DNA of 64,000 nucleotides, taken from assembly GCA_947176385.1 (NCBI GenBank), contig CAMWQN010000002.1:8245-72244 (forward strand), in the 5' to 3' direction. Shown piece by piece: positions 722-63,849 of the stretch. Under the pieces are notes generated by a model. The model saw only the letters and a program-made list of their open reading frames with translations. It was not told the DNA's origin and made no database searches. The stretch's first letter is position 1, and every line of letters starts with the position of its first letter. A program made the translations under genes and the position numbers. The stretch comes from an uncultured Rickettsiales bacterium (GTDB lineage: Bacteria > Pseudomonadota > Alphaproteobacteria > Rs-D84).

Positions 722-739
722 TTCCATTGAACCAAGCAT

Positions 740-971
740 GGATGACTGGGTTCGGGACCTGAAAAATCCCATATAGAGACGATGCGGGTAATTACCATCA
801 TCGTAATCCGACACTACGTCGGTGCATTATTGCGCCGTTGTTTTATGAACCCGACTGTATTCCGGTCGGGGGTCTGTGATTATAAAACAGGACACGTCCA
901 AAGGTCACAGGGGTCATTTCTCTATATGATTTTTTCAATCCCCGACCGCCGGTTTTCATGGCGGTTTTTTT
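740..971 (+). promoter_or_regulatory. Structured 5' leader L1 with terminator/antiterminator architecture
   Basis: P1 is TGAAAAA (760-766) paired with TTTTTCA (931-937). Hairpin X1:X' is CCCGAC (850-855) with GGTCGGGGG (864-872). X2 CCCCGACC (940-947) overlaps the terminator ACCGCC-N9-GGCGGT plus T-run (945-971). Confidence 0.6.
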
Positions 972-1003
972 AGTAATCAATTTACAAACGGGGGAATAAT
1001 AAA

Positions 1004-21884: not shown

Positions 21885-22580
21885 TTATTCATAATAGCAA
21901 CGGCTGCCTGCCGGAACAATCTGATATACACCTGTAACATCATAACCTTGACTTTCGGTTAAATAGCAGCCTTGGATTGTTTCATTTGCCCCAGGGTCTG
22001 ATTCCCCTGCTTTTGTGGTGGCACTCATTGGACACTGCGTACATCCCGTCATTCCCATTGCACCAAAACCCTCAATATAATTTTCCTTAATCGCGGAACT
22101 GGAACCATAAAAACCTGCAGCGCAACGATGTTTTGAACGTTTTTCCCACGTACAGGTACTGGTATTACATTCGGTCCACGTATTTGTCTGATATCCATTC
22201 CAAGAATCTTTCCAGGCATCCTCGTCATACTCAATTTCTGAATTTGGGTCACATGTCTTTGCCACACTGCACGGTTGGCATACATATACACCACCATTTC
22301 TATTGCTGCACCCCATTGCCACAAAATCTGGGTCCAACGTCAGGATATAGCCATCTTCGCACATATGACATATCTGAAATTTTCCGGCTTTACCAGTTGA
22401 TTTATTTATATAGCACAACGAATACGGAAACATATACTGTTTACAATGTGCAATATTCTGTGCGGGTTCTGCAATTGATGCACACGTTTCGTTATCAGAT
22501 GGCGCCATTCCGCATTGTGCATATGCTAATTCGGTCGTTAAAAATGTTGACATTGTAACGATTAAGAGTTTTTTATTCAT
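21885..22580 (-). CDS. Small secreted cysteine-rich protein, paralogue of 1004-1699 and 40216-40890
   Basis: Signal peptide present. The shared C-terminal module is RCAAGFYG..GCTQCP..GCYL..D.TG.Y..C.YE. Confidence 0.8.
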   Translation of the reverse strand: MNKKLLIVTMSTFLTTELAYAQCGMAPSDNETCASIAEPAQNIAHCKQYMFPYSLCYINKSTGKAGKFQICHMCEDGYILTLDPDFVAMGCSNRNGGVYVCQPCSVAKTCDPNSEIEYDEDAWKDSWNGYQTNTWTECNTSTCTWEKRSKHRCAAGFYGSSSAIKENYIEGFGAMGMTGCTQCPMSATTKAGESDPGANETIQGCYLTESQGYDVTGVYQIVPAGSRCYYE

Positions 22581-22812
22581 TATTCAATCTCCTGCTGTTG
22601 TAAAAACAAAACCACCATTTTTGGTGGTCAGGAGGTTGATGACAATTACAGGAATTGTGTTGCGTATTGGATATTTCGCAAACCCTCCTGACCCTGGGTC
22701 AGGAGTTTGTTTTTCGTCTGAACATCAAAACAGGCGCAATACGCGCCACAAGAATCCATTCTGACGCCTGTATAGAGGTCATCACACCCCATCAACGGAA
22801 TCCCCGTTGACA
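22581..22812 (-). promoter_or_regulatory. Structured 5' leader L2, homologous to 40891-41131
   Basis: See findings for detail. Elements are P1 TGATGAC/GTCATCA, the X1:X' hairpin, and X2 overlapping the terminator ACCACC-N6-GGTGGT plus U-tract. Confidence 0.65.
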
Positions 22813-22818
22813 TTATTT

Positions 22819-23095: not shown

Positions 23096-25858
23096 TTAGA
23101 ATTTGTAATTTACCCCTATATTTAATTCCATATTTGAATAGTCTGATGCTGTTCCATATTTTGCAGATAAATAACCATCAAAAGCCCTACCCAAAGTGAC
23201 TGATAGCCCGCATTCCAATTGAGCGACATTGAAGTCTTCGACTGATTTTATATCGCCAATATCACTTATGTTCACATTATTCCCTTTGGTTGATGTAATC
23301 AAATATGAAGGTCTGATGAATAAATCTATTGCTCCTAATGATTGTGAAAAAGTAATACCAAAATCTGCCAGAATCTGATTTATATTATCATACTCAACCG
23401 TTCGTCCATAGACATCGGTCAAACTATCCAAGGAGAGATTTATATATGTTATGCCAGCCACAGGAGCAAATTTAAAGCCAGTCCCAACATCAATTAAATA
23501 TTGTGTTTTAAGCATTATGCCTGTTTGCGTCCCGGAAAAATCTGTCATGAATCCATCATCTGTTTTGACCTCAGACTGTAATAATCCACCATAAACCCCA
23601 GCAAAAACATTAAAGTTTTTAGGATTATAACGCATATAGCCACCAAATATTTGGCTGTGACCGTCTATCCAACTTTCTAAATCGGCATGAATTTCTTTGG
23701 CTTTACCAGAGAAAGAATGTTTAGCCTCTCGTATTGAACCCATTACTCCCATAGTCCAATTGTTGCCCAGCGATTTGTTGTATCCGAAATCACCCCCGAA
23801 TACCTTTGAATCCATTTCTGCAATCGTATCATTCTTTATTTGGGCAAAAACAGGTGTTATCCATATATTGCTGTTTTTCGGTACATAAAATGCGCGATTC
23901 ATTGAATTATGCGTTTGATCTAACATTGCGCTTTGCATGGCGGCATATGCCACTATTTCTGGATAAGAACGTACAATGTGCGGTAAATCTGGCTCAATAT
24001 CATTATTATCGTCATTATTATCATTATTGTCATTAAAGTCGCCATCATAATCAGGATTTTTGATATTATTCATTTCCAATGCCCAGGTTTTGGCGCTTCC
24101 ATCATAGAAATTCACATCATACATATATGGGCTGCCGAATACGCGAAATACGCTGAAAGAATTGTCATTTCCCTGACCAGTAGCCGTCGCAAACACAATA
24201 TCCTGTTTGCCACGAATATCCGTATCATCTAATGCATGGACCACAAGCTTTGTTTGCCCCGTAACATCCCCATCTATATTTAGAATATCAGCCGTCATAT
24301 CGGCTGGATTTACATTCAGATGAATATAGGAATTGCTTTGCGTAATCAATGCACCCAGACGAACACTTTCAATATACGTGTTTGCCATATCAAATGTGGC
24401 GTTATTCAATGTCATAATTGGGTATTTATCGTTTGACAGGAATTGTCCTTTGCCATATATGCCATTATCAAATTTCATGACGGCATTATTTATATTTATG
24501 TTACCCGCGTTAATAACAAAATTGTTGATATATAACGCCCCTGTTCCATCACCACTGATATTAATATCATATGGGTTCGCGCCATCTATGTTGTCATTAA
24601 AAGTATACGAACCCATATTTTGCAAATCAAAGTTTAATGCCTTACCATTCGTACCGCCCATATATATGGCATTATAATTAACACCATTTTTATCAATTAT
24701 ATGATTTCCACTGAACTTGTAATTATTATTATCGACACGAAATGATATGTTATTTTCCGAATAAATCGCACCACCACATGCATCGCCATTTGCGGAATTC
24801 GCGTAATTGTTAATGAAATTGCCGGATATTCTGTCTATTTGTCCCAATGTATAAATTGCACCACCCATTGCCTGGGATTCTCCGACCGCATAGTTATTGA
24901 TAAAATCCGCCTGGATATTGCTTAGTACCGTTGATGTGCCGGGCAGGATGCTATAAAACATCGCACCACCGCTGGCATGTGATTTAGAAACAGCATGATT
25001 GTCGATAAAATTTCCTGTAATATCAGATAATTTATATTGTTCATCATTTGCATCTTGAACTATATAAATTGCGCCACCGGTAGCCGCTTGGTCTGCATTA
25101 ACCGAATTGCTGATAAAATCTGCATTTATTTTTCCTGGAACCCCATTAACATATAATGCACCACCACGCGCGTCCCATGTCGCATTGATATAATTTGCAA
25201 TAAAGTTTGCATTTATGCTGGTTTGTATTTCATAAGTCTTATCATTTGTTCCGTTATAAATCGCACCACCATATCCGGATTTTGAGCCTGATATATAATT
25301 CCCTATGAAATTTCCAGAAATATGCTCTATTTCACCTCGGTCACCATTGCTTCCACGGGCACTGTAAATTGCCCCACCCATTGCATAATTACTTGCAGTC
25401 ATAATTCCATTATTAATAAAATCCCCATATAATTCCCGAATAAGGCTGGTATTATGTAACGCACCACCGTCAACCGAGCTATTTATTTCATGGGACGTAA
25501 TTTTGTTTGATATAAAATCCATGTATATTTTGTTTTCCCATGTGGAAACCTGTGTGGTCTTATCTGTGGTATTACGAACATATCCAATCATTTTTCCCAT
25601 TATCGGTGTAATGTTCGCGCCAACCGACGAAACCGAATAGTTCCAGTTTTGGTCAACAATGCCATCATTGGTTTCCATATATGTGGTTATGTTACCAGGT
25701 GATGATGTTTGTTGAAAATTCATTTCATATCCACTGGGGATTGATGATTGTCCGTTCGCATATAAATAGTCCAATGTAGGCGTATAATTTTCAAAATCAA
25801 ATGCCCCAAAAGCACTGTTAACAGATAAAATAAGCGGTAATATAAATATTTTTTGCAT
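23096..25858 (-). CDS. Autotransporter with polymorphic-membrane-protein (Pmp)-type repeats
   Basis: Signal peptide present. Seven alternating FxxN / GGA[ILM] repeats (for example GNFIGNY..YGGAIYNG). C-terminal beta-barrel region ends in ..GVNYKF. Confidence 0.85.
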   Translation of the reverse strand: MQKIFILPLILSVNSAFGAFDFENYTPTLDYLYANGQSSIPSGYEMNFQQTSSPGNITTYMETNDGIVDQNWNYSVSSVGANITPIMGKMIGYVRNTTDKTTQVSTWENKIYMDFISNKITSHEINSSVDGGALHNTSLIRELYGDFINNGIMTASNYAMGGAIYSARGSNGDRGEIEHISGNFIGNYISGSKSGYGGAIYNGTNDKTYEIQTSINANFIANYINATWDARGGALYVNGVPGKINADFISNSVNADQAATGGAIYIVQDANDEQYKLSDITGNFIDNHAVSKSHASGGAMFYSILPGTSTVLSNIQADFINNYAVGESQAMGGAIYTLGQIDRISGNFINNYANSANGDACGGAIYSENNISFRVDNNNYKFSGNHIIDKNGVNYNAIYMGGTNGKALNFDLQNMGSYTFNDNIDGANPYDINISGDGTGALYINNFVINAGNININNAVMKFDNGIYGKGQFLSNDKYPIMTLNNATFDMANTYIESVRLGALITQSNSYIHLNVNPADMTADILNIDGDVTGQTKLVVHALDDTDIRGKQDIVFATATGQGNDNSFSVFRVFGSPYMYDVNFYDGSAKTWALEMNNIKNPDYDGDFNDNNDNNDDNNDIEPDLPHIVRSYPEIVAYAAMQSAMLDQTHNSMNRAFYVPKNSNIWITPVFAQIKNDTIAEMDSKVFGGDFGYNKSLGNNWTMGVMGSIREAKHSFSGKAKEIHADLESWIDGHSQIFGGYMRYNPKNFNVFAGVYGGLLQSEVKTDDGFMTDFSGTQTGIMLKTQYLIDVGTGFKFAPVAGITYINLSLDSLTDVYGRTVEYDNINQILADFGITFSQSLGAIDLFIRPSYLITSTKGNNVNISDIGDIKSVEDFNVAQLECGLSVTLGRAFDGYLSAKYGTASDYSNMELNIGVNYKF

Positions 25859-26162: not shown

Positions 26163-26192
26163 CAAAAAACAAATCCGCCAATTGGCGGACTT
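26163..26192 (-). terminator. Additional intrinsic terminator inside the long upstream region of the Pmp-like gene
   Basis: The minus strand reads AAGTCCGCC-aatt-GGCGGATTTGTTTTTTG. Confidence 0.55.
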
Positions 26193-26533
26193 TAAATCAA
26201 TGGTTAGTTAAGTGGTTTGAGATATGGACTATCCATAAAATGCGGTCTTGTCGCACGTGCGCCAGCCAAATAATCCATACAGTCCAATTCATACAGTTTG
26301 ATATTCACTTCTACGAATTTTAAATTTGATATATATAGCATATTTTTTGAATCAAACAAGTACGACCATTGTTTTTTTATTTGGCTGATAGATACGATGC
26401 TTGAATTTTATTCTGTCCAATCCATTTCATTATCCACATGTTCTGGGAATAGTGGGATTGGCGCAGTTTCTGGTTTGTCGTCAATAATATAGCACCATGA
26501 AAAAAGTAATTTAATTATAATCCATAACGTGAT

Positions 26534-34787: not shown

Positions 34788-36752
34788 TCAATCAATATCC
34801 ATATTATACACAGAATACACACTTCCATTATATTCAACATTCAACGCCTTTTTTCTGGATTCTGGTATCATATCACCATATAACACATGATTTCCATATT
34901 GTACTGACAAACTGGGGTGCGTGCGCCAGTCATTATGCAACCATACGGAATATTGTCCAAATCGCATAACCCGACCACAATCAGTCAAACTGTCGGCGCC
35001 ACGCCCATACCCGATTGTCATTAAATTATCCGGACACTTGTTACGTTTACCACTGTTACCATAATTTGTATAATTTATATCATTCCAATACCCAGGTCCA
35101 ACATTCGCGCACTGCGTCGCACGTGCCGTTGCCAAATACGTACCCGCATCACACTTTATCTGACATTCATTAATCGACTGCGGTGCTGTATTATCAGGTG
35201 CACGGTCAGCATAATAATCCGGACAATCTTGACAAGAATTCCCAGACGCATACTGTCCCATCGGACATACGATTTTGCCATCAATACACACAAAATCAGC
35301 TGGACAAACCGTACACACATCACCATCACGAAAATATCCGTCATTACACCGCCAGGGGCAATCGTTACCATCAGGACTGCCTGCACCAATATAAATTGCA
35401 TTTTCCGGTGCATTTGTACATGCTTTATTATACTTAAACCGCATATACTCCCCTAAATGTACAGCATTCGCCAGATATCGACCGACGGTATCTGTCTGAA
35501 CCCAGTAAATATCAGAGCTCCAATATCTATCTCCTTGCCATGGCAAATCTTTAGTATATACGCCATCAGGTGTTTCAAACAACGCCCCCCCTATCCTACA
35601 ATTGGCAGCGTTTGTAATAAGCCCACTAACAGAATATGTAGTCACCCTTAAATTGTCAGCATTAATCAGCCTGTCCTCAGATGGCAATACAGATTCCAGT
35701 ACACCAGCATCAAATTCAGGACACCGAAACATTGTATTATTATTGCAATAATTGGCACCAGTGCACACAGAACACATATTGCCATTCAACCAATATCCAT
35801 CAAAACAATTAATTTGTGTGCTGCCGGCGGGACAAGTTGAATTCTGCGGACAGACATCACACCGATTGACATTCTTATAAAATCCTGAAACACAATCAAA
35901 ATCCGTCACAGATCTGCACGTTGAATTTTCCACAGGACACATTTCGCATACGGCACCATTATCAAAAAAGCCCGGATTACAATTTGGTGGCATACCAGAA
36001 TCGCCCGACGCATACGATAGACATTGACCATCTGAATGCCAGAACAACCCATCCGGACATTTTTGTTCCTTGTGTCCGGGACATACAACACCATCGGGAC
36101 ATGGAACACATTCTGCACCCATTTTATAAAATCCGGGGGCGCAATATTGCATATAATTGCTAATTGTCGCGATACCATCTGGACAATAATATTCACCCGG
36201 ACACTGAAAACAATGGTATGAACTTTTATAATAACCTTCGATACACGTAACAGATGAAATCGTTGAACCAGCGGGACAATGCAATTCAGCCCCACAGTCC
36301 ATACAATACGTACCATTCCAATTATAATACAAATACCCAGCACCACAACTGATTAATTTTTCACCATCACAAACATGCCCAGCACAAGACCGACACATAA
36401 ACCCATCACGAAACCAGCCGTCATCACAATGAAATGTATCGGTCCCACCCACGCATGTTGCATTATTAACACATTGTGAACAAACACCGTTATATAAATA
36501 TGTTCCAGGCATGCACGAAAATTCTGTGGGTCCTGTACATGTGCTGTTTGGTGGGCATGCCAGACATTGGTTATTACCATCTGCATAAAATCCGTCATTA
36601 CAAGAATATGTTTCACCATCACATGTTGCGTTATACATACAGTTGACACAATTACCACCAGATAAATACTGATTCACATCACATGTTGCAGCATTGGCAA
36701 CACCACCTGCGCCCACCAACAACAGTACAACAGAAACCAACAGTCGTATCAT
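34788..36752 (-). CDS. Secreted protein made of furin/VSP-like cysteine-rich repeats
   Basis: Start placed at MIRLLVSVVLLLVGAGGVANA with AAGGGGA RBS. The ORF-track start at 36782 falls inside the leader terminator. Repeats have the form C..G.Y...G.C..CP.NSTC throughout. Confidence 0.8.
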   Translation of the reverse strand: MIRLLVSVVLLLVGAGGVANAATCDVNQYLSGGNCVNCMYNATCDGETYSCNDGFYADGNNQCLACPPNSTCTGPTEFSCMPGTYLYNGVCSQCVNNATCVGGTDTFHCDDGWFRDGFMCRSCAGHVCDGEKLISCGAGYLYYNWNGTYCMDCGAELHCPAGSTISSVTCIEGYYKSSYHCFQCPGEYYCPDGIATISNYMQYCAPGFYKMGAECVPCPDGVVCPGHKEQKCPDGLFWHSDGQCLSYASGDSGMPPNCNPGFFDNGAVCEMCPVENSTCRSVTDFDCVSGFYKNVNRCDVCPQNSTCPAGSTQINCFDGYWLNGNMCSVCTGANYCNNNTMFRCPEFDAGVLESVLPSEDRLINADNLRVTTYSVSGLITNAANCRIGGALFETPDGVYTKDLPWQGDRYWSSDIYWVQTDTVGRYLANAVHLGEYMRFKYNKACTNAPENAIYIGAGSPDGNDCPWRCNDGYFRDGDVCTVCPADFVCIDGKIVCPMGQYASGNSCQDCPDYYADRAPDNTAPQSINECQIKCDAGTYLATARATQCANVGPGYWNDINYTNYGNSGKRNKCPDNLMTIGYGRGADSLTDCGRVMRFGQYSVWLHNDWRTHPSLSVQYGNHVLYGDMIPESRKKALNVEYNGSVYSVYNMDID

Positions 36753-37020
36753 CAAAATCCCCTTGTAAAAAAAGACCGTCATCAGAACACGACGGTCGGG
36801 GTGGTTCGAAAATCATCTTATCATTGATTCTGTCAGTCTTTCGGCGGAACCGTGTTTTATAACCGACAGCCCCCCGACTGAGATAGTCAGGGATAAATAA
36901 CGATACAAAGTCACAGGAAATTATTGGAATAACGATGACCTATGCTTTTGCACCGGATAAGAATAGCCTTCGACAGCCCCGAACCTGTGTCCCCACAAGT
37001 TCGTTTAAATAATAACATAA
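36753..37020 (-). promoter_or_regulatory. Structured 5' leader L4, homologous to 25859-26118
   Basis: P1 is TCGAA/TTCGA. X1:X' is CCCTGACT with AGTCGGGGGG. X2 CCACCCCGACC overlaps the terminator GACCGTC-N10-GACGGTC plus U-tract. Confidence 0.65.
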
Positions 37021-37104
37021 ATCATGATGGTCGTCCACCACATTTGTGTGGAGATAGATTTTTTAACGACAATGCGTTTTTCATGCGATGGACAACCATA
37101 AGAA

Positions 37105-37260
37105 CAAAAAAATGCCACCTAAAAAAACACAGGCGGCTGGAGGTTGAGACCAATAATCAAGTAGTATTGTCGGTTTATTCAATATATTCACCGAACTCCA
37201 ACCAGTGTTGGATTACAATATCCGCAATGCGGATACGACTTGATATGGGGTCTCAATCCC
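37105..37260 (-). promoter_or_regulatory. Structured leader module C3, stacked upstream of L4
   Basis: P1 is TTGAGACC (37256->37249) paired with GGTCTCAA (37151->37144). The hairpin is CCAAC-ACTG-GTTGG. X2 CCTCCAGCC (37143->37135) overlaps the terminator GCCGCCT-N10-AGGTGGC plus U-tract. Confidence 0.55.
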
Positions 37261-37374
37261 AGCGCAACAAATCGTTGCACCGGCTGCATTATACTACAAC
37301 TTTTTTATTTCGCTACAATTTTATTAAAAAAAGTTCCGATAAATATCGGAACTTTTTTTACGCATTTGTAATTT

Positions 37375-38787
37375 TTATTTTGCAAAGAATCTGTTATATA
37401 CACGTTCATTTACCTTGACCGGATATTCGCGCTTTAAAAACGCATTATAGTCATCGGTTATCTGACGTGCAGATGTATTTTGCATTTCGGTTTGGATATT
37501 CGCCATTTTTACTGTATCCATTGCGGGCATTTTTTCCGCATCAATATGCAATACATAAAATGCGCCATTGTCCTCGACAATTGAATTTGTTCCGACCGAC
37601 CCATTAAATGCCGCAGTCAAAACCGCAACAGGCGCACCAGATGCACGTGATGCTGTAACTGATTTTTTCCCCTGCAATTCATTGCCTTTGTTTAAATCAA
37701 CCAGCAATTCATTTGCACGAACATATGCCTGCTTTTTCTGTTCCGCTGCACGCCACGCGTTGGTTAAACCGGACTTTACAGCATCAAAATCAGCATTATG
37801 TTCTGGGATAACTTTGTCAACACGGGCAATTACAAAACCAGATTTTGTTTCAATCAATTCGCTTTCTGTTCCTTCATCAATATGGAACATGCGTGAAACC
37901 ATCGCTGGATTCATAATTTCATCTTTTGATACAGTGTCTGCATGTAAATCATCAATCGATACAAACTTTACATTATGACGTTTTGCTGCCGCGTCCATTG
38001 CATCACCTGAAATAATATCATCTTCGACCTTCTGCGCGATAGTAAATGCCGCATCATAACTGTCCGGCTGGTCCATTTTTGCAGGTATCAATACATATGA
38101 TACATTACGTGATTCCGGTACAGTATGTAGATTCTGATTATAGAACGTACGCAATTGTTCATCTGTTGGTGTGCCAACATTAAATGTATTGAAATCAACA
38201 GTTGAATATTCAATTTCACGTGTTCCATAGCGTGCATTATATGCCGCAGTTTTCGCAAACTGTGGCACTGCCATTGGAACAGACATCGAACCCAACACCA
38301 TAGAACGCAATACCTGACCACGCAGATAATTTGCGAATTCAGATTCACTTAACCCGGAATTTGACAATACAGTATCAAACAAATATGTAGAAAATTTCCC
38401 ATCTTCTTGAAATTCTGGGAACTGACGAATTTCTGTTGCGATGCGTTTATCACTGACAACAAAGCCCAAATCATTTGCACGATTTTCAGCCATCTGTTGT
38501 GAAGCCAACTTTTCCAAGATACCATCTGTAAACTTCTGCATTGCGGCAGGATCGGTATATGTTTCACGTTGCTGTTCACGTGTCATTTCCGCCAGCCCAC
38601 GCGATTTTTCATTATTAAATTGCTGGGCGCTGATTTTTTCGCCACCGACTGTCACCAATGTATTATCACTGACCGCGCCACCAAATATCCATTCTGCGAC
38701 GCCCCAACCGACGAACGAAAACATTAAGATACCAATTAAAACCTTGGCAATTGGTTTTTCTGATGCATTACGTAAATATTCTAGCAT
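37375..38787 (-). CDS. ppiD: Periplasmic chaperone PpiD-like (SurA N-terminal domain / PPIase-like)
   Basis: N-terminal anchor is MLEYLRNASEKPIAKVLIGILMFSFVGWG. The length and overall pattern match PpiD. Confidence 0.7.
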   Translation of the reverse strand: MLEYLRNASEKPIAKVLIGILMFSFVGWGVAEWIFGGAVSDNTLVTVGGEKISAQQFNNEKSRGLAEMTREQQRETYTDPAAMQKFTDGILEKLASQQMAENRANDLGFVVSDKRIATEIRQFPEFQEDGKFSTYLFDTVLSNSGLSESEFANYLRGQVLRSMVLGSMSVPMAVPQFAKTAAYNARYGTREIEYSTVDFNTFNVGTPTDEQLRTFYNQNLHTVPESRNVSYVLIPAKMDQPDSYDAAFTIAQKVEDDIISGDAMDAAAKRHNVKFVSIDDLHADTVSKDEIMNPAMVSRMFHIDEGTESELIETKSGFVIARVDKVIPEHNADFDAVKSGLTNAWRAAEQKKQAYVRANELLVDLNKGNELQGKKSVTASRASGAPVAVLTAAFNGSVGTNSIVEDNGAFYVLHIDAEKMPAMDTVKMANIQTEMQNTSARQITDDYNAFLKREYPVKVNERVYNRFFAK

Positions 38788-40215: not shown

Positions 40216-40890
40216 TTATGGTTTAATAGGTTCCAATTCAACAATTTCACCGCCGGTTAACCCATTGGAATATTCACAATTTTCTGTATATGTACCACTG
40301 CCAGTTGTATCTGAGAAAGATGTTCCTGCAGGCAAATAGCAACTTGTGACATATTTGCTGCCGGCTGCACTGGTACCGTATGTGCCACTGCCAGATTGTG
40401 GACATCTGGTACAACCTGATGTTCCATTGGTACTGGAACCATAATATCCTGCGGCGCAACGATATGTAGTTGATATTACAGCACAACCACCTGTACATGT
40501 GCATGAACGTCTTGCCTGTTGTTCGTATCCAGCGGTTCCAGTTGCAGTGAAACCGATATCACTGGCGCATGTACCGCATGATATGCAACATTGATACACC
40601 AGTTCATATGTAGTGTTACACGAATTGCTGAGTTCTGATATTGATACTTGTTTTCTTTCTGTGCCACTTGGGCATGATGTACAACTTTGAAAACGTATTA
40701 CATTTCCCGAACCACTTTTATAACATACATTTGTATGGTTGCCTTCCCGACATGTTGTTATTGCCTCCATTGGGGCAGCAGTACATGTTGTTGACGTACA
40801 CACGCCATTATCGAGTGAAAGTACAGCATTGGCTGGTTTTTCTATTGGCATGATTGTTATCATTGCCAATATAATTAGTTTATGTTTCAT
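40216..40890 (-). CDS. Small secreted cysteine-rich protein, paralogue of 1004-1699 and 21885-22580
   Basis: The shared C-terminal module is YRCAAGYYGSS..GCTRCP...SCYLPAGTSFSDTTGSGTYTENCEYS. Confidence 0.8.
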   Translation of the reverse strand: MKHKLIILAMITIMPIEKPANAVLSLDNGVCTSTTCTAAPMEAITTCREGNHTNVCYKSGSGNVIRFQSCTSCPSGTERKQVSISELSNSCNTTYELVYQCCISCGTCASDIGFTATGTAGYEQQARRSCTCTGGCAVISTTYRCAAGYYGSSTNGTSGCTRCPQSGSGTYGTSAAGSKYVTSCYLPAGTSFSDTTGSGTYTENCEYSNGLTGGEIVELEPIKP

Positions 40891-41131
40891 TATTCAATCT
40901 CCTGTTTTTTCGTAATGAAAAACCACCCAAAATTCAGGTGGTCAGGAGGTTGATGACAATCCATAGAATTGTGTGCTTATTCGTTATATTCGCAACCCTC
41001 CTGCCCACAAATTGGTCAGGAGTTGTTTTTCCGTCGTAACAGTAAAATTGGCGCAAAATGCGCGCCCCTATAAACATATTCCGACGCTATGGCAGAGGTC
41101 ATCACACCTCATCATTGGAATTCCCAATGAC
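40891..41131 (-). promoter_or_regulatory. Structured 5' leader L5, homologous to 22581-22812
   Basis: Same helices as L2 with compensatory changes. The terminator is ACCACC-N9-GGTGGT plus U-tract (40922-40942). Confidence 0.65.
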
Positions 41132-41137
41132 AAAATT

Positions 41138-41207: not shown

Positions 41208-44200
41208 CTATATTCCCAAGCGATGTGTTAATTTCATCATGAATATAGATTCGTTTCCATAATCATCACAGTTGTTTGGATTTACACGATAAATAAATCC
41301 CAACGCCCCATCTGTAAACGCGCCAAAATTATGTCGGACGGACCCAGCAAAACGCAATTCGCGCACATCCGGACGCAGGTCAACATCTGCGACATGACTG
41401 TCACGGATAACCAGATCATAATTACCATCGTCACTGCCAACCACATCATACTGGGCAGATGCATATTTCATTGCGCCATGCGATACCGCCAATGGGCGCG
41501 CAACAGATAAACTGATATTTCCCCAATCCAGACCAATACCAAACGCATTTGAATCAACATCTGACATACCCAATATAAAGTCCCCACTTGCGTCCGCACG
41601 CGTTCTGGCAAATGTAGCGCGCGCCGTCAATGCGAATTTATCCCACGGTGCATAACGCATAACTGTATCAATATATGTTGTATCACCCCCGCCCAAATTC
41701 AGCAATCCGCCCGTCTGCGCCCCCAGAATTGTATTTGATTCTGTGGCATGACCAACAGCGGTTGTAAACCCAAACTTATCGCCATGCCACGCCAGGTGCG
41801 ATTGCCCGCCCTGGAACAATCCCAGACGTGCTGGATTAAATTGTGACGTTACGGTCGGGTCATTTTCCAATAAACCTTCGTCTGTTATTTCACCGGAAAA
41901 TACGCGTCCACCAAATGACCAGCGACCATGATTATATATCGCATCAGACACAATTGAATTTGACGCCATTGATAATATTGGATTCGCCATTCCATCAAAG
42001 CGTGACGCGCCATCTGTCAAATAATGCTGATATCCCGCATTCAAATTCCAATTACCACGTGAATAATCAAAACGCAATGCATCCAGTCCTGACAAATTGT
42101 CATTGTATGCACGCGGCGAACGCATCAATGAAAAACCAAAGTTTCCAATCTGAGCACGCTGAACATTATCGTCGCGTGTTTTCAATTCACCCAATACATC
42201 CCCCATATACAAAGCCCGACGTCCCGCGTCACCAGATACCGCAAATTCATTTTGCCACACACGTGGCATGCGCAAACTGCCATCCGAACTTTCCAACACA
42301 TCAAAGAATGGTGCACTGATTTTATCAACAGATGGTCTGAAGGCACTGGACCCGCGGAACATTGTATTTGATGCCGCGCGCCAATATGCATCGCCATTGC
42401 TGGACACAATATCCGTACCATTATAATAATAAACCTTGGTTCCAGGTTTGGTCGCGCGTTCCAAATTTATCAGACCATATCCAAAGACTTCTTTGAACAC
42501 ATCCAAATAATCTTCACCATCTTGCATCCAGCGCACATTATATTCATTTGGTAACACATACATTGATTGTAAATAACTGCGCAAAGAATCCTGGGTTGTA
42601 GCCACACCATTGGTAAATGTTCCCAAATATGGTCCATCCGCCGTCAATGCCAACAATGCAAATACTTGCTTGTTATCCAAATAATCAAATGCAGACTTTA
42701 CCACACCCGCAGCACCTGCGGCACTGGCGACCGCCATTTCTGCATTTACACCCGCTGATGCAAAACACCATGGGTCGATACTGCTGCTGCCACGACCGGC
42801 TGCGCCACAAACGCGTGCGCGATAATATGTATCATCTTCTGTCGTAGTGGTTCCATTGGTATCCGACCACTGTGATAATGCATATTTACCAGATGGTGAA
42901 AATCCAGCAATTGAATCTGTCCCGGATGTACCAGCTGTACCGGTTATACCAACAGCAACCACTGACATAAACAAATGTTCCAAATTCTTAAAAACTAATG
43001 GTGCTGCGTTTTCAAATGTTGCCTCTCTTGTTCTGCCGGTAAAATTACTGTCTGTTTCATATCCACCTGTTGAAAATACCAACAATGGTGTCGTACTGTT
43101 TCCGACCGCAGTAAACAACGTCGCCGCATATGCACTGGGCAAATCATTTGAACCACTGATACCATCACCCTTATCGCGGTCATAATATAAATCAACAAAT
43201 TTTGCAAATTCAGTACGGTAATCACTGGTTTCCGCAGCCAATATATCATCAATTACTTTTGTATCAATTGAATACAACGGCGCAATAACAGATGCATTTG
43301 CCAACACATCCGCTCTGGATCGCCCATTACCGTCTTTATTTAAAGTGGCAGCCAGTGATAAAGCCTGATAGTTATGATAATCAACATTCCCCAATTCGCG
43401 ATTTAATACCAACTGTTTGGTGTCACCAGCAACAACCTGCAAATATGCCACATCCACGGCACCATCTGCATTACTGTCAAAATACAGAAAATTATTTTTT
43501 ATACCGATATATCCAGTATATGTCGGACTGTTGTCACCAGCAGCCTTGGCAGTAAACTTATTACCATCCATTGTCAACGTTAATGTTCCCAGTCCCGGCA
43601 ATGTTATCGTATCACCGGTGGCAAAAGTGTCACTTGCCCTTTCAAATGTACCATTGCGCGCATCATCTGATACTTCTTTGAAGCCCCGTCCACCACCGGT
43701 GCGGAAAATAGTCATTTGACCATTTGGCATAAACCCAACATAGTCAGCATTTGGATATCCCGAAAGACTGCCCCCCAGAACCTTGGCCAGGCGATTATCA
43801 TCATTGCTGGCACTGGCATTTTGAACTGCGGTATTTGATCCGGATAAATCGAACAAATCCACCATATTTGGATCTTCGTACGTTGAATCATCCAACAATG
43901 AATTATTATCCGTACCACGTTTAATCAAATTATTGTAATACTTGCTGGACAGCAGATCATTACTGGCACCATTCAGACTGGTTGAATCATTTAATGTCGT
44001 CCAAACCAACAAAACATCATCCAATGAATCTTTCCCAGCAGAATAATCCCCAGCAGGCTTCATCGCAGCATTTACACCGTTTGCAGTAACCAACGCAACA
44101 TTTGTTGGACGTCCGCCCTGAATATCATATTCGCCCAATGCGCCACTTAATGGAATCGGCGCATTTGAAAATTGATTACGCAATGTACGCATCCCCAGAT

Positions 44201-44906
44201 ACCCACGTGCAAATGGCGAATACCCATGCATCATCAACAGATAGTTTTGTTTGAATGCATTCGACATAAGTTCAAAATTCTGTTTGTAAATCGCTGTAGA
44301 ACTGCTGGGACCATATACTTCCAAGTTTGCAGAATACGATTGCGCTTCGTCTGCCGCGGTTGGCAATGCCGGTCCATAATTCAATGCAAACGCTTCTTTG
44401 CCAAGACCACTTTCACCACCACCGGAATTATCACCACCGATTGGGCGATTTCCTGCCGTCCCGGAATTATCGTTTCCATTGCCAGGGTCAAATACATCCG
44501 TTAATAAAAACAGTCCACCTATAACAACGGCGGCACCCGCCGCCGCCAATGTCAAACTCTGGGCGGATGATAGCCCACCAAACAAACCACCGCTGCCCTT
44601 GGGCTTATTACGACTGTTATAATTCTTTATTTGTCGGTCACAACGCGATGCATCTGCGCCATACATCTGTAAAATCTGGGCAGCACGCATATCATTATTC
44701 ATCAGTGCAGTACAAACCAGTGACAATCCTGTTGAATCGGTATAGTTAACATCTGCCCCGCTGTTTATCAGAATCTGAACCTGTTGAATATCAGCATTTT
44801 TTGCCGCAGACAACAATTGTGCTGCCACCATAAAATCATTAGATGCCGCATGCACCGACAGTGGCGCAAAAAATATCATAAACAACAATAATCTGATGTA
44901 TTTCAT
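41208..44906 (-). CDS. Large envelope protein: signal peptide, ankyrin repeat, glycine-zipper segment, large passenger-like region, C-terminal beta-rich domain
   Basis: The ANK-like segment is NADIQQVQILINSGADVNYTDSTGLSLVCTALMNNDMRAAQILQMYGAD. The glycine-zipper is GGLFGGLSSAQSLTLAAAGAAVVIGGLF. The last ~300 aa show an alternating beta-strand pattern. Confidence 0.7.
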   Translation of the reverse strand: MKYIRLLLFMIFFAPLSVHAASNDFMVAAQLLSAAKNADIQQVQILINSGADVNYTDSTGLSLVCTALMNNDMRAAQILQMYGADASRCDRQIKNYNSRNKPKGSGGLFGGLSSAQSLTLAAAGAAVVIGGLFLLTDVFDPGNGNDNSGTAGNRPIGGDNSGGGESGLGKEAFALNYGPALPTAADEAQSYSANLEVYGPSSSTAIYKQNFELMSNAFKQNYLLMMHGYSPFARGYLGMRTLRNQFSNAPIPLSGALGEYDIQGGRPTNVALVTANGVNAAMKPAGDYSAGKDSLDDVLLVWTTLNDSTSLNGASNDLLSSKYYNNLIKRGTDNNSLLDDSTYEDPNMVDLFDLSGSNTAVQNASASNDDNRLAKVLGGSLSGYPNADYVGFMPNGQMTIFRTGGGRGFKEVSDDARNGTFERASDTFATGDTITLPGLGTLTLTMDGNKFTAKAAGDNSPTYTGYIGIKNNFLYFDSNADGAVDVAYLQVVAGDTKQLVLNRELGNVDYHNYQALSLAATLNKDGNGRSRADVLANASVIAPLYSIDTKVIDDILAAETSDYRTEFAKFVDLYYDRDKGDGISGSNDLPSAYAATLFTAVGNSTTPLLVFSTGGYETDSNFTGRTREATFENAAPLVFKNLEHLFMSVVAVGITGTAGTSGTDSIAGFSPSGKYALSQWSDTNGTTTTEDDTYYRARVCGAAGRGSSSIDPWCFASAGVNAEMAVASAAGAAGVVKSAFDYLDNKQVFALLALTADGPYLGTFTNGVATTQDSLRSYLQSMYVLPNEYNVRWMQDGEDYLDVFKEVFGYGLINLERATKPGTKVYYYNGTDIVSSNGDAYWRAASNTMFRGSSAFRPSVDKISAPFFDVLESSDGSLRMPRVWQNEFAVSGDAGRRALYMGDVLGELKTRDDNVQRAQIGNFGFSLMRSPRAYNDNLSGLDALRFDYSRGNWNLNAGYQHYLTDGASRFDGMANPILSMASNSIVSDAIYNHGRWSFGGRVFSGEITDEGLLENDPTVTSQFNPARLGLFQGGQSHLAWHGDKFGFTTAVGHATESNTILGAQTGGLLNLGGGDTTYIDTVMRYAPWDKFALTARATFARTRADASGDFILGMSDVDSNAFGIGLDWGNISLSVARPLAVSHGAMKYASAQYDVVGSDDGNYDLVIRDSHVADVDLRPDVRELRFAGSVRHNFGAFTDGALGFIYRVNPNNCDDYGNESIFMMKLTHRLGI

Positions 44907-59847: not shown

Positions 59848-59989
59848 ATCCTATCCCTTTACATTCTTGTTTATAATATCATATTCATGGGAATAAAAAA
59901 AGACAAAATATGTAACTACACCCAAAATTATCTTGATTAAATCGTTTAAAACAATGTTTTTTACAGACACGTATTTTATAAATAAAAAA

Positions 59990-60009
59990 ATCCCGCCGAA
60001 TGGCGGGAT
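59990..60009 (-). terminator. Intrinsic terminator after rplQ
   Basis: The minus strand reads ATCCCGCC-attc-GGCGGGAT followed by TTTTTTT. Confidence 0.7.
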
Positions 60010-60026
60010 GTATTCAGCAGCCAACA

Positions 60027-62291: not shown

Positions 62292-62310
62292 TCATTAACG
62301 CATAAAATAA

Positions 62311-62338
62311 AAAATCCGCCAATTGGCGGATTTTTTTT
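62311..62338. terminator. Bidirectional intrinsic terminator
   Basis: AAAATCCGCC-aatt-GGCGGATTTTTTTT. Confidence 0.75.
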
Positions 62339-62381: not shown

Positions 62382-63011
62382 TTACCGCACATGTGCCGCA
62401 AACAATGCTGCGCGGAAAGTAGAAAAATAAGCACCACTGCGCACAAACCAGTCCGCCACACTGGATACAGCGCATTCTGGATAGCTATAATTGCCGTCAC
62501 CAACCCAGGATTTGCAATACAATTCGTATTTACCTGTTAATTTGTTTTTAACGATTATGTTGCCAACAACTGCTCTGCCCTTTTGGTTATATTTTGGATT
62601 GCTTATCGGATTACCATAGCCTTTGAATGATACACTATCTATTGTCATTGTTATGGATGCCGCAAATTCATACTGCTGACTGAATTTTGGTTCTCTTTCC
62701 ATCGCAGTCTTAAATTCTTTTACGTGCTCAGCATTTTCAACCTGACCGTCTATCGTGTAACCGTTATATTTATTTGTGTTCCACATGTTAGTTTCACAGT
62801 TGTAATATACAACGTTTGTATGACCAACTAAACGCTGTACAACAGCATCATTCAATTTTTCTGATGTCCCAGCTGATTTGACCTGTGGCGCTTTATCATC
62901 ATGTACCACAGTGGCACGCGATAAAATTTGCTGTTGCAATTCCCAATCCGCGGGGGACAACTTATAGCGAACACCATCAATGACTATATCTTTATTCTTT
63001 TTGTCTGCCAT
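62382..63011 (-). CDS. Hypothetical protein, tandem paralogue A
   Basis: Start placed at MADKKNKDIVIDGVRYKL; the ORF track begins at 63101. It is highly similar to 63202-63849 and has its own promoter and terminator. Confidence 0.65.
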   Translation of the reverse strand: MADKKNKDIVIDGVRYKLSPADWELQQQILSRATVVHDDKAPQVKSAGTSEKLNDAVVQRLVGHTNVVYYNCETNMWNTNKYNGYTIDGQVENAEHVKEFKTAMEREPKFSQQYEFAASITMTIDSVSFKGYGNPISNPKYNQKGRAVVGNIIVKNKLTGKYELYCKSWVGDGNYSYPECAVSSVADWFVRSGAYFSTFRAALFAAHVR

Positions 63012-63201
63012 GATATTTCTCTTGTTTTTTATTGACATACAAGATAGCAATATTTCATATTTTGTCAAATGATTTATAAAAACACAGGATTGCCACGTCA
63101 TGGCTTACACCATTCCTCGCAATGATAATGGGGATACACTCTGGACACTGAACTCTATAAAAAAATCCCCCAACTGGGGGATTTTTTATTGCACGCATAG
63201 A

Positions 63202-63849
63202 TTACCGCGTATGCGCCGCCAACAATGCGGCACGGAAAACGGAATACCTGGCACCGTAGTCCGCAAACCCGAACGCCCCGCTGCGGACAGCGCCGCGCGG
63301 ACTGAAGAAATCGTAAACGCCAACCCAGGATTTACAATACAATTCATATTTACCTGTTGCCTTGTTTTTAACAATTATGTTTCCAACAACCGCTTCACCA
63401 TTTTGGCTGTATTGTGGGTTGCTTATCATCTTAGCCCAGCCTGGGTAAAATGCCTTACCTATTGTCATTGTTACAGATGCTGCAAATTCATACTGTTGAT
63501 TGAATGCTGGAATGTTTTCCATCACAGACTTAAATTCTTTTACACGCTTGGTATCTGTGTCCTGACCGTTTATCGTATAGCCATTATACTTACTTGTGTT
63601 CCACACATTTGTTTCACAATTATAATACACAACGTTTATATGACCAACCAGGCAATTTACTACGATATCTGTCAGTTTCTCAGATATTACTATTACTTTT
63701 TCTGTCGCGACTGGTTTGATATCTGATTTAACAGGTGATGCTTTATCATTATTTACCACAATGGCACGCGATAAAATTTGCTGTTGCAATTCCCAATCCG
63801 CGGGGGACAACTTATAGCGAACACCATCAATAACTATATTTTTATCCAT
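63202..63849 (-). CDS. Hypothetical protein, tandem paralogue B
   Basis: MDKNIVIDGVRYKLSPADWELQQQILSRA... About 60 nt of its 5' coding sequence are identical to paralogue A. Confidence 0.65.
   Translation of the reverse strand: MDKNIVIDGVRYKLSPADWELQQQILSRAIVVNNDKASPVKSDIKPVATEKVIVISEKLTDIVVNCLVGHINVVYYNCETNVWNTSKYNGYTINGQDTDTKRVKEFKSVMENIPAFNQQYEFAASVTMTIGKAFYPGWAKMISNPQYSQNGEAVVGNIIVKNKATGKYELYCKSWVGVYDFFSPRGAVRSGAFGFADYGARYSVFRAALLAAHTR

Follow-up and report, generated by a model that had tools for sequence, protein, structure and literature searches.

C3 and L4, two structured RNA modules downstream of ppiD in an uncultured Rs-D84 alphaproteobacterium, are probably independent units

Introduction

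Does the DNA between ppiD and a gene for a large cysteine (Cys)-rich protein encode one long leader or two separate RNA units? The locus lies at positions 36,753 to 37,374 of a 64,000-nucleotide (nt) stretch, here called the window, from an uncultured Rickettsiales bacterium of the lineage Rs-D84 (GenBank assembly GCA_947176385.1, contig CAMWQN010000002.1), and is read on the minus strand. A sequence-only reading of the window had proposed a single leader of about 530 nt that starts from the TATAAT box at 37293 and carries two related attenuators, C3 and then L4, in tandem. We compared the window with 52 fetched loci (450 kb in total), in which the elements were located by nhmmer, and consider it probable, at roughly 0.6, that C3 and L4 are two independent promoter-to-terminator units that have one toggling architecture in common and were juxtaposed by gene insertion.

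Two probable promoter-to-terminator units

C3 and L4 represent the two types, C-type and L-type, of one family of structured leaders, of which the census gives 53 L-type and 15 C-type copies (68 in all): eight within the window (five C-type and three L-type) and 60 more across the 52 loci. The plan common to both types consists of an own -10 box; the elements H0, H1 and H2 (followed in the L-type by a variable hairpin); a hairpin made by two short segments, seg1 and seg2; H4 and H5; a strand that partners the H1 loop; a third segment, seg3, that overlaps the 5′ arm of the terminator; a U-tract; a ribosome-binding site (RBS; GGGG or GGAG); and a start codon 9–25 nt later. The parts of C3 are as follows.

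37288–37320, minus strand: predicted C3 promoter block, with the -10 box TATAAT at 37293 to 37288 and an upstream block, ATTGTAGCGAAATAAAAAAG, that is invariant in five species
37106–37281, minus strand: C3 RNA, C-type, about 175 nt (from direct reading, terminator scan, folding and orthologs)
37281 to 37261, minus strand: H0
37261 to 37246, minus strand: H1 hairpin, whose loop TTGAGACC (37256 to 37249) pairs with GGTCTCAA (37151 to 37144)
37236 to 37218, minus strand: H2
37212 to 37207, minus strand: seg1, TCCAAC
37203 to 37196, minus strand: seg2, GGTTGGAG
37194 to 37170, minus strand: H4
37169 to 37151, minus strand: H5
37142 to 37134, minus strand: seg3, CTCCAGCCG
37143 to 37135, minus strand: the strand called X2 in the sequence-only reading, CCTCCAGCC, confirmed by reading
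37137 to 37114, minus strand: terminator (consensus scan), with T7 at 37112 to 37106

Those of L4 are given in the same way.

37009–37037, minus strand: predicted L4 promoter, with -35 TGGACG (37037 to 37032), a 17-nt spacer and a TG-extended -10 TATTAT (37014 to 37009), that is, TGGACG-17-TGtTATTAT
36767–37003, minus strand: L4 RNA, L-type, about 237 nt (from direct reading, scan, folding and alignment)
37002 to 36981, minus strand: H0
36980 to 36965, minus strand: H1, whose loop TCGAA (36973 to 36969) pairs with TTCGA (36810 to 36806)
36955 to 36933, minus strand: H2
36892 to 36886, minus strand: seg1, CCCTGAC
36878 to 36870, minus strand: seg2, GTCGGGGGG
36892 to 36870, minus strand: the pairing called X1:X′ in the sequence-only reading, CCCTGACT-ATCTC-AGTCGGGGGG, confirmed by reading
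36869 to 36830, minus strand: H4
36829 to 36811, minus strand: H5
36801 to 36795, minus strand: seg3, CCCCGAC
36804 to 36794, minus strand: X2 of L4, CCACCCCGACC, confirmed by reading
36797 to 36774, minus strand: terminator (consensus scan), with T7 at 36773 to 36767

The motif positions originally given for the two modules are all correct on direct reading of the minus strand, and the C3 hairpin CCAAC-ACTG-GTTGG is present. The exchange of the H1-loop pairing from TTCACA/TGTGAA in the L-type copy at 26 kb to TCGAA/TTCGA in L4 is likewise real. The consensus scan finds five terminator-like sites in 2 kb, compared with 1.7 expected from shuffles; the ppiD terminator, at about 37358 to 37329, was seen by reading and is absent from the scan list. 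A simple promoter scan passed over the C3 promoter because the spacer to TTGTAG is 19 nt.

The two modules have separate promoter-like sites. TATAAT is present in every C-type copy, and 38 of 52 L-type copies have a hexamer that matches TATAAT at five or six of six positions, at a constant position, a few bases upstream of the conserved 5′ end. The TATTAT of L4 sits at this family-typical -10 position, and homology between L4 and the 26-kb L-type copy starts at about 37002–37010. The proposal of one ~530-nt leader is not supported, since L4 has a predicted -35 and extended -10 of its own at the place usual for the family. Nor is a tandem by design borne out: C3 and L4 are the sole same-strand pair within 600 nt among the 68 elements (the gap is 97 nt), a C-type element stands upstream in one of 51 evaluable L-type copies, namely this one, and L4 is absent in three of four related genomes and deleted in the fourth. 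The sequence-only reading had named a start of transcription downstream of 37105 as the result that would make C3 an unrelated element, and the promoter-like sequences lean toward such a refutation.

History of the locus

Orthologous loci (L049–L052) were reached through PpiD homologs with 93, 80, 73 and 71% identity, respectively. In each of the four, ppiD is directly followed by a C-type element on its own strand, and the identity of this element to C3 (93, 77, 73 and 71%) compares with 89, 79, 74 and 73% for ppiD coding DNA. Among these C3 orthologs the long-range helix changes from TTGAGAC/GTCTCAA to TTAAGAC/GTCTTAA and the terminator from GCCGCC/GGTGGC to GCCACC/GGTGGT, both of them compensatory changes. 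No L-type element follows C3 in L050–L052, and the next genes there are convergent. In L049, the closest relative, homology with the window ends at 37013; a separate TATAAT is followed by the first ~30 nt of an L-type leader with its own canonical TGTGTTATAAT, and this remnant is joined, through a TCGGG microhomology, to the final 130 nt of the Cys-rich gene. The two units are evolutionarily independent. C3 appears to be an ancient orphan unit tied to ppiD, L4 with the Cys-rich gene appears to be a cassette of the window's close lineage that has already decayed in L049, and their juxtaposition would be a by-product of the cassette insertion.

The gap between ppiD and CBAH (window 34788–37013, L049 2700–2910, and L050–L052) is a hot spot in which cassettes of a leader plus a gene come and go. 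It holds the L-type leader and Cys-rich gene in the window, a C-type element with a 200-aa (amino acid) gene on the opposite strand in L051, a C-type element with a 75-aa helix-turn-helix (HTH) gene in L052, nothing in L050 and the deletion remnant in L049. The 5′ end of the L049 L-type leader differs from L4 and yet the gene remnant is 94.6% identical, which suggests leader swapping by recombination at this gap.

Between the C3 terminator and the L4 promoter lies a further conserved structure.

37027–37099, minus strand: hairpin X, with a stem of at least 14 bp; the fold of the window sequence pairs 17 bp (37099 to 37083 with 37043 to 37027)

Its loop contains the invariant sequence ATCTATCTCCACA (37059 to 37047), which is confined to the five ppiD-linked loci in a search of the window and the 52 loci, and its 3′ arm is overlapped by the L4 promoter-like site. 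Hairpin X has z = -3.8 with 0 of 200 shuffles as good, and its stem is kept in all five orthologous loci, with compensatory changes at four stem pairs. Because X is the only sequence that read-through of C3 would transcribe in L050–L052, it may be an RNA payload controlled by C3.

Two open reading frames (ORFs) overlap these RNAs. A 20-aa ORF inside X (37083 to 37021, MKNALSLKNLSPHKCGGRPS) was considered as a leader peptide and rejected; it is not conserved, its ATG being ATA in L049 and L050, and L049 has a 13-nt deletion. On the opposite strand, a 158-aa ORF (window 36942–37418, plus strand) spans C3, the X region and the end of ppiD over conserved RNA structure and is very likely spurious.

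Shared structure and covariation

The predicted folds of C3 (37281 to 37107, z = -7.45) and L4 (37003 to 36766, z = -6.91) were equaled by 0 of 200 shuffles each, and nhmmer finds paralogs of both modules in the window with E-values of 1e-37 to 1e-84; both results set the modules apart from chance. In the two types alike the H1 loop has its complement in the strand directly 5′ of seg3, seg3 is a copy of seg1, seg2 has two possible partners, seg1 or seg3, and an A-rich loop, internal or terminal, is conserved in the H4 arm.

The helices covary in 40 L-type copies, with compensatory changes at 25 pairs; 93.1% of cells are paired, compared with 35–52% when the partners are slid, and none of 500 shuffles reaches the observed value. 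The long-range pairing of the H1 loop is found in 39 of 39 L-type copies, at a mean of 6.4 contiguous Watson–Crick bp for cognate and 3.8 for non-cognate partners and with 22 different 3′ strands, and in 15 of 15 C-type copies (7.5 bp cognate versus 3.8 non-cognate, 12 different 5′ strands). The three C-type segments co-vary among TTGG/CCAA, CAGG/CCTG and GGGG/CCCC variants; the seg1/seg2/seg3 sets are CTCCAACC/GGTTGGAG/CCTCCAACC, CTCCTGACC/GGTCAGGAG/CCTCCTGACC and CCCAAC/GGTTGGGG/CCCCAACC. The C-type seg2:seg3 helix is 9–11 bp long and reaches 4–5 nt into the terminator arm. Junction and loop nucleotides (UUAUAnAAnA, AAAG, GGGUCAUU and AUGAUUU) are invariant across dozens of species, and GNRA-capped hairpins (GAAA, GAGA, GCAA, GTAA) occur in family sequences. 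The sequence-only description of two related attenuator types, each with a long-range helix and a logic of X1:X′, X2 and terminator, is supported in outline.

Proposed switching

The first unit, C3, would be an orphan C-type RNA, transcribed from a promoter of its own that directly follows the terminator of ppiD and normally ending at its own terminator, at about 175 nt; read-through would continue only into the conserved non-coding hairpin X. The second unit, L4, would be the 5′ leader of the Cys-rich secreted-protein gene, starting at its own promoter near 37003. We propose that each can take two folds. In fold A (OFF) the H1 loop region would pair long-range with the strand just 5′ of seg3, and seg2 would be held in the local hairpin with seg1; seg3 is then left free and the terminator would therefore form. 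Energy minimization predicts fold A with the terminator for C3 and L4 alike. In fold B, which we infer to be the ON state, H1 would close on itself and seg2:seg3 would close a three-way junction with H4 and H5. This would remove the bottom three or four pairs of the terminator (GCCG in C3, GAC in L4), those next to the U-tract, and RNA polymerase would therefore read through into the gene. What selects fold B could be a factor or ligand that stabilizes the junction, or perhaps a trans-acting RNA, as in the related Gifsy-1 IsrK leader considered below.

Relatives in Rfam and in phages

At Rfam gathering thresholds, the whole window and 16 loci give tRNAs only. Under permissive settings the full model of sRNA-Xcc1 (RF02221, model positions 1–87), a family of small RNAs (sRNAs), recurs on the core from seg2 to seg3, with 41.2 bits in L016 (E ~2e-6), 30.3 in L047, 30.3 in a C-type copy in L020 and 24.5 in L4 (36879 to 36786, E = 0.063 in 542 nt). 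Other low-scoring hits (snoR143, MicC, PyrR and others) lie on the ppiD terminator and were set aside as chance. A reciprocal covariance model, R1, built from 33 L-type cores only, scores 78.8 bits on L4, 20.3 bits on the C3 core (37203 to 37131, E = 2e-4 in 701 nt) and 21–26 bits on other C-type cores. On phage elements it scores 37.5 bits (Aaphi23, E = 2e-7) and 31.0 bits (Stx phage P13374, E = 7e-6); such elements, in Aaphi23 and Stx phages, had been found by BLAST with the family consensus. The internal loop AUACAAUA/GAA is common to the family and these phage relatives.

About 40 nt separate the phage element from the antirepressor or ORF6N gene that follows it, and direct reading gives the order promoter, hairpin, isrK-like terminator, Xcc1-like junction and ant gene. 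There too the hairpin loops (TCGAAA and CTCAAAA) read as complementary to strands next to the closing helix (TTTCGA and TTTTGAG). The leader of the P13374 type is present in 152 of 5426 complete Escherichia coli genomes. In P13374 (L053, 1451–1597) and E. coli prophages, a 48-aa coding sequence annotated "antB2" overlaps the sRNA-Xcc1-like element upstream of the antirepressor/ORF6N gene; it may be a mis-annotated structured leader. In the literature, sRNA-Xcc1 copies also precede symE in integron cassettes of Xanthomonas and an ORF6N gene in APSE (bioRxiv 10.1101/2025.06.18.660453, 10.1101/2020.03.17.996009).

For the isrK-orf45-anrP leader of Salmonella Gifsy-1, experiments with mutations and compensating mutations established two folds (Hershko-Shalev et al. 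2016, PMC4825925). The inactive fold pairs G28 and G31, in the middle of IsrK, with C162 and C159; in the active fold IsrK forms its own hairpin along with a helix that includes G114:C175, and short terminated IsrK activates in trans (PMC4825925). The present family likewise has complementarity and covariation for two mutually exclusive sets of helices. By analogy, the Gifsy-1 folds may correspond to H1:partner with seg1:seg2, and to the H1 hairpin with seg2:seg3. The 5′ part of C3 (H0, H1 and H2) matches isrK (RF01394) at 16.9 bits (E = 0.29–0.54), below the gathering score of 50 bits. BLAST of the phage collection with the Stx-phage leader gave no Salmonella or Gifsy-1 hit. No U-tract follows H2 (AUUGU follows in C3 and UUAUUCC in L4), terminators being present only at the 3′ ends of the modules, and the exact IsrK mechanism, in which a short 5′ RNA acts in trans, therefore does not apply here.

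Alternative explanations

In the single ~530-nt leader from 37293 both attenuators would have to be open in series, giving two-input or sharper control. In its favor, both modules are on one strand, the 97-nt gap between them contains no gene and its 20-aa ORF is not conserved. Any polymerase that gets past the terminator of C3 would run on into L4, and an L-type leader already followed C3 in the common ancestor of the window and L049. The idea nevertheless seems improbable in view of the TG-extended -10 and -35 at the family-typical place in L4, the canonical TGTGTTATAAT of the L049 remnant, the solitary tandem among 51 evaluable L-type copies, the presence of C3 in L050–L052 without any L-type element or same-strand gene, and a strong C3 terminator whose default fold is OFF. 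C3 could instead be a free-standing sRNA gene whose ~175-nt product acts in trans, a mode of action claimed for sRNA-Xcc1 and demonstrated for short IsrK: it has a conserved promoter and terminator of its own and no downstream ORF in five species, it is as strongly conserved as the neighboring coding gene, and stable small RNAs of ~88 nt and 80 nt have been observed for relatives (PMC2996969, PMC4825925). We think this unlikely, as 10 of the 15 C-type copies stand directly before an RBS and ORF like ordinary leaders, and the C3 H1 loop UUGAGACC has no match to the TTCGA of L4; C3 also retains all the switch segments and the conserved downstream hairpin X, which suggests that read-through matters.

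Both modules might also be small-molecule riboswitches in which the three-way junction is the aptamer and a ligand stabilizes seg2:seg3 and turns transcription on. They are large multi-helix RNAs with GNRA-capped hairpins, the invariance of their junction and loop nucleotides extends across dozens of species and that of AUACAAUA/GAA to the phage relatives, and the terminator/antiterminator platform is of the usual kind. The controlled genes, however, are surface proteins, lipoproteins, autotransporters and small HTH-like proteins, and in relatives antirepressors, symE and ORF6N (bioRxiv 10.1101/2025.06.18.660453, 10.1101/2020.03.17.996009); this lack of a metabolic theme argues against a metabolite-specific riboswitch. 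Gene context offers no candidate ligand, and the relative that has been studied is switched by RNA, not by a metabolite (PMC4825925). A riboswitch is thus a possibility to which we give limited weight.

Two independent units with toggling folds remain our preferred reading, and several points weigh against it. Both promoters and both termination points are predictions, and polymerases that escape the C3 terminator would enter L4, so that some incidental coupling is possible. In L4, seg3 overlaps the terminator by just 3 nt and the H1 stem has a mismatch. Because seg1, seg2 and seg3 are almost invariant in the L-type, its seg2:seg3 helix has no covariation support, and RNAalifold lets this helix, ending before GACC, coexist with the L-type terminator. 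Forcing seg2:seg3 costs +10.4 kcal/mol in C3 and +11.4 kcal/mol in L4 before the 3′ arm of the terminator is made, in a pseudoknot-free model; fold B would therefore depend on an effector from outside or on a kinetic route. All RF02221 matches are below the gathering score of 53 bits, a comparison of the C3 core with RF02221 gave no Rfam match at E ≤ 10, and the equivalence with Gifsy-1 rests on positions quoted in PMC4825925 and not on sequence alignment.

Start codon and downstream genes

The gene that follows L4 starts as had been suggested in the sequence-only reading.

36750–36764, minus strand: RBS AAGGGGA (36764 to 36758) and ATG (36752 to 36750), the start of the 654-aa secreted Cys-rich protein (34788–36752)

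The true start is the ATG at 36752, which has AAGGGGA 6 nt upstream and a signal peptide after it (MIRLLVSVVLLLVGAGGVANA); the ATG at 36782 sits in the loop of the L4 terminator, and the same spurious in-terminator ATG occurs in L010 and L024. Pfam and NCBIfam give nothing above threshold for the 654-aa protein, with weak TNFR-like and Giardia VSP Cys-rich matches only. The label "furin-like" is thus unconfirmed, since there is no Pfam hit above threshold, and the product is a secreted Cys-rich repeat protein.

An ORF follows 47 of the 48 L-type copies that have enough downstream sequence, and 38 of these 47 ORFs begin with a hydrophobic signal-like stretch. The proposed division into an "HTH-gene type" (C) and a "surface-gene type" (L) is not supported: lipoproteins and secreted Cys-rich proteins are also encoded downstream of C-type copies, and an HTH-like ORF follows one L-type copy. 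Two other C-type copies stand before ORFs of 224 and 231 aa that encode Cys-rich secreted proteins and not HTH proteins, and a single downstream gene family was ruled out by tblastn of the window proteins on the loci, which shows mixed cargo. No positionally conserved ORF with a Shine–Dalgarno sequence and ATG was found in the 53 L-type and 15 C-type leaders; "MNP.." ORFs at leader positions 1–2 were an artifact of sequence slicing.

Distribution of the family

The eight copies in the window, as located by nhmmer, are listed here with the genes that follow them.

37299–37102, minus strand: C-type, C3
3741–3944, plus strand: C-type, then an HTH-like ORF of 108 aa
15818–16045, plus strand: C-type, then an HTH-like ORF of 78 aa
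22825–22579, minus strand: C-type, then a Cys-rich secreted protein of 231 aa
41144–40889, minus strand: C-type, then a Cys-rich secreted protein of 224 aa
37005–36762, minus strand: L-type, L4, then the Cys-rich 654-aa gene
26111–25872, minus strand: L-type, then an autotransporter
727–979, plus strand: L-type, then a Cys-rich secreted protein of 231 aa

A search for further leader terminators in the window gave none beyond these eight family members. A species scan with the L-core pattern against one genome per species returned 47 loci, nearly all from gut or rumen metagenome-assembled genomes (MAGs) labeled Alphaproteobacteria ("Candidatus Enterousia", "Rickettsiales bacterium" or uncultured Alphaproteobacteria) and three from a MAG labeled Muribaculaceae. 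All copies are assigned to reduced-genome gut Alphaproteobacteria of the order Rs-D84 ("Ca. Enterousia"), an order of uncultured organisms with genomes of less than ~1 Mb (PMC12306168). A literature search found no paper on RNA elements in Enterousia or Rs-D84, a collection search with the exact PpiD protein gave no match, and a metagenome scan with PpiD returned a single distant locus without any element. Four of the loci (L017, L018, L044 and L052) are contigs of CAZJGX01, an "uncultured Muribaculaceae" MAG that has these leaders and a PpiD 71% identical to that of the window; the contigs look mis-binned.

Two C-type leaders of the window, together with the starts of their Cys-rich genes (22545–22817 and 40855–41137), are 75% identical. 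In both, seg1, seg2 and seg3 are of the CAGG/CCTG variant, and a large surface-protein gene lies just upstream of each, for an autotransporter (23096–25858) and an Ank-repeat protein (41208–44906), respectively. Elsewhere in the window, near-identical palindromes of the AAATCCGCCAATTGGCGGATTT type with A-run and T-run flanks (15723–15752, 26164–26193, 59982–60011, 62305–62334 and 63156–63185) look like bidirectional terminators. A tandem duplication of 78–92% identity (62500–62995 and 63320–63845) covers two neighboring minus-strand ORFs (62382–63101 and 63202–63849), each of which is followed by one palindromic terminator.

Implications

For the window itself, the gene start is corrected to 36752 and the supposed 530-nt leader is split in two. 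More generally, two well-supported subtypes of structured leader RNA are defined, and weak matches link them to two separate Rfam families, RF02221 for the junction cores and RF01394 for the 5′ part of C3. These elements are a new and abundant variant of the sRNA-Xcc1/IsrK kind of RNA switch, and the link suggests that sRNA-Xcc1-type RNAs are generally 5′ leader switches. As the leaders mostly precede genes for secreted proteins, lipoproteins and autotransporters, a role as a main regulator of the cell surface is likely in these bacteria.

We offer only tentatively the wider idea that Rs-D84 bacteria have taken over a phage and integron switch of this kind as the standard on/off control of surface-protein genes. 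If so, each genome would have dozens of copies, each with a private long-range "address" in its H1 loop and partner strand; every surface gene could be switched independently, and possibly bistably, at the RNA level, giving surface variation without DNA rearrangement; and Rfam sRNA-Xcc1 as a whole would be a cis-acting leader element and not a trans-acting sRNA.

Comparison with known systems

The closest likeness is to sRNA-Xcc1, first described as an 88-nt sRNA of Xanthomonas campestris, with copies in integron cassettes, Xylella islands and APSE. The two have the same three-way junction, a closing helix GgCcGGggG/CccCCgGcC, a short second arm, a single-stranded stretch before the 3′ strand, and a long arm with the internal loop AUAcAAuA...GAA and a GNRA-capped tip; the phage and cassette members, like the family described here, lie just upstream of a gene (ant, ORF6N or symE). 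They differ in that sRNA-Xcc1 is annotated as a trans-acting sRNA, whereas here the core is part of a longer leader that has a 5′ domain and an intrinsic terminator directly before the RBS, and in that the host is an Rs-D84 alphaproteobacterium with eight copies in 64 kb and surface-protein cargo. The Gifsy-1 leader has a comparable pair of states, with a 5′ hairpin that pairs ~130 nt downstream in the inactive one and closes on itself, beside a helix spanning ~60 nt, in the active one. Its output, however, is translational, through the RBS of an upstream ORF, and a terminator after the 5′ domain gives the short trans-activating RNA; in our family the terminator follows the junction and there is no conserved upstream ORF as a counterpart of orf45.

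Tandem riboswitches, including two complete riboswitches in one 5′ untranslated region, were reportedly described by Sudarsan et al. in 2006. C3 and L4 resemble them as two complete sensor-plus-terminator modules on one strand before one gene, but a promoter-like site lies between the modules, the arrangement occurs in one of 51 L-type copies, and it arose by insertion of a leader-plus-gene cassette. In the immunity of phages P1 and P7, the c4 antisense RNA, with its a1b1, a′b′ and a2b2 elements, is processed and acts on an RBS. The family has only a resemblance to c4, in that upstream and downstream copies of a short sequence are both complementary to a middle element of the same transcript and specificity varies from copy to copy; the Rfam C4 model gave no match at E ≤ 10 in this region or at E ≤ 5 in three other family members scanned. 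The series of alternative helices (1:2, 2:3 and 3:4) ending in an intrinsic terminator recalls attenuators of the trp type, although no conserved leader ORF overlaps segment 1. With riboswitches, finally, the family shares a conserved structured domain with covariation joined to an expression platform.

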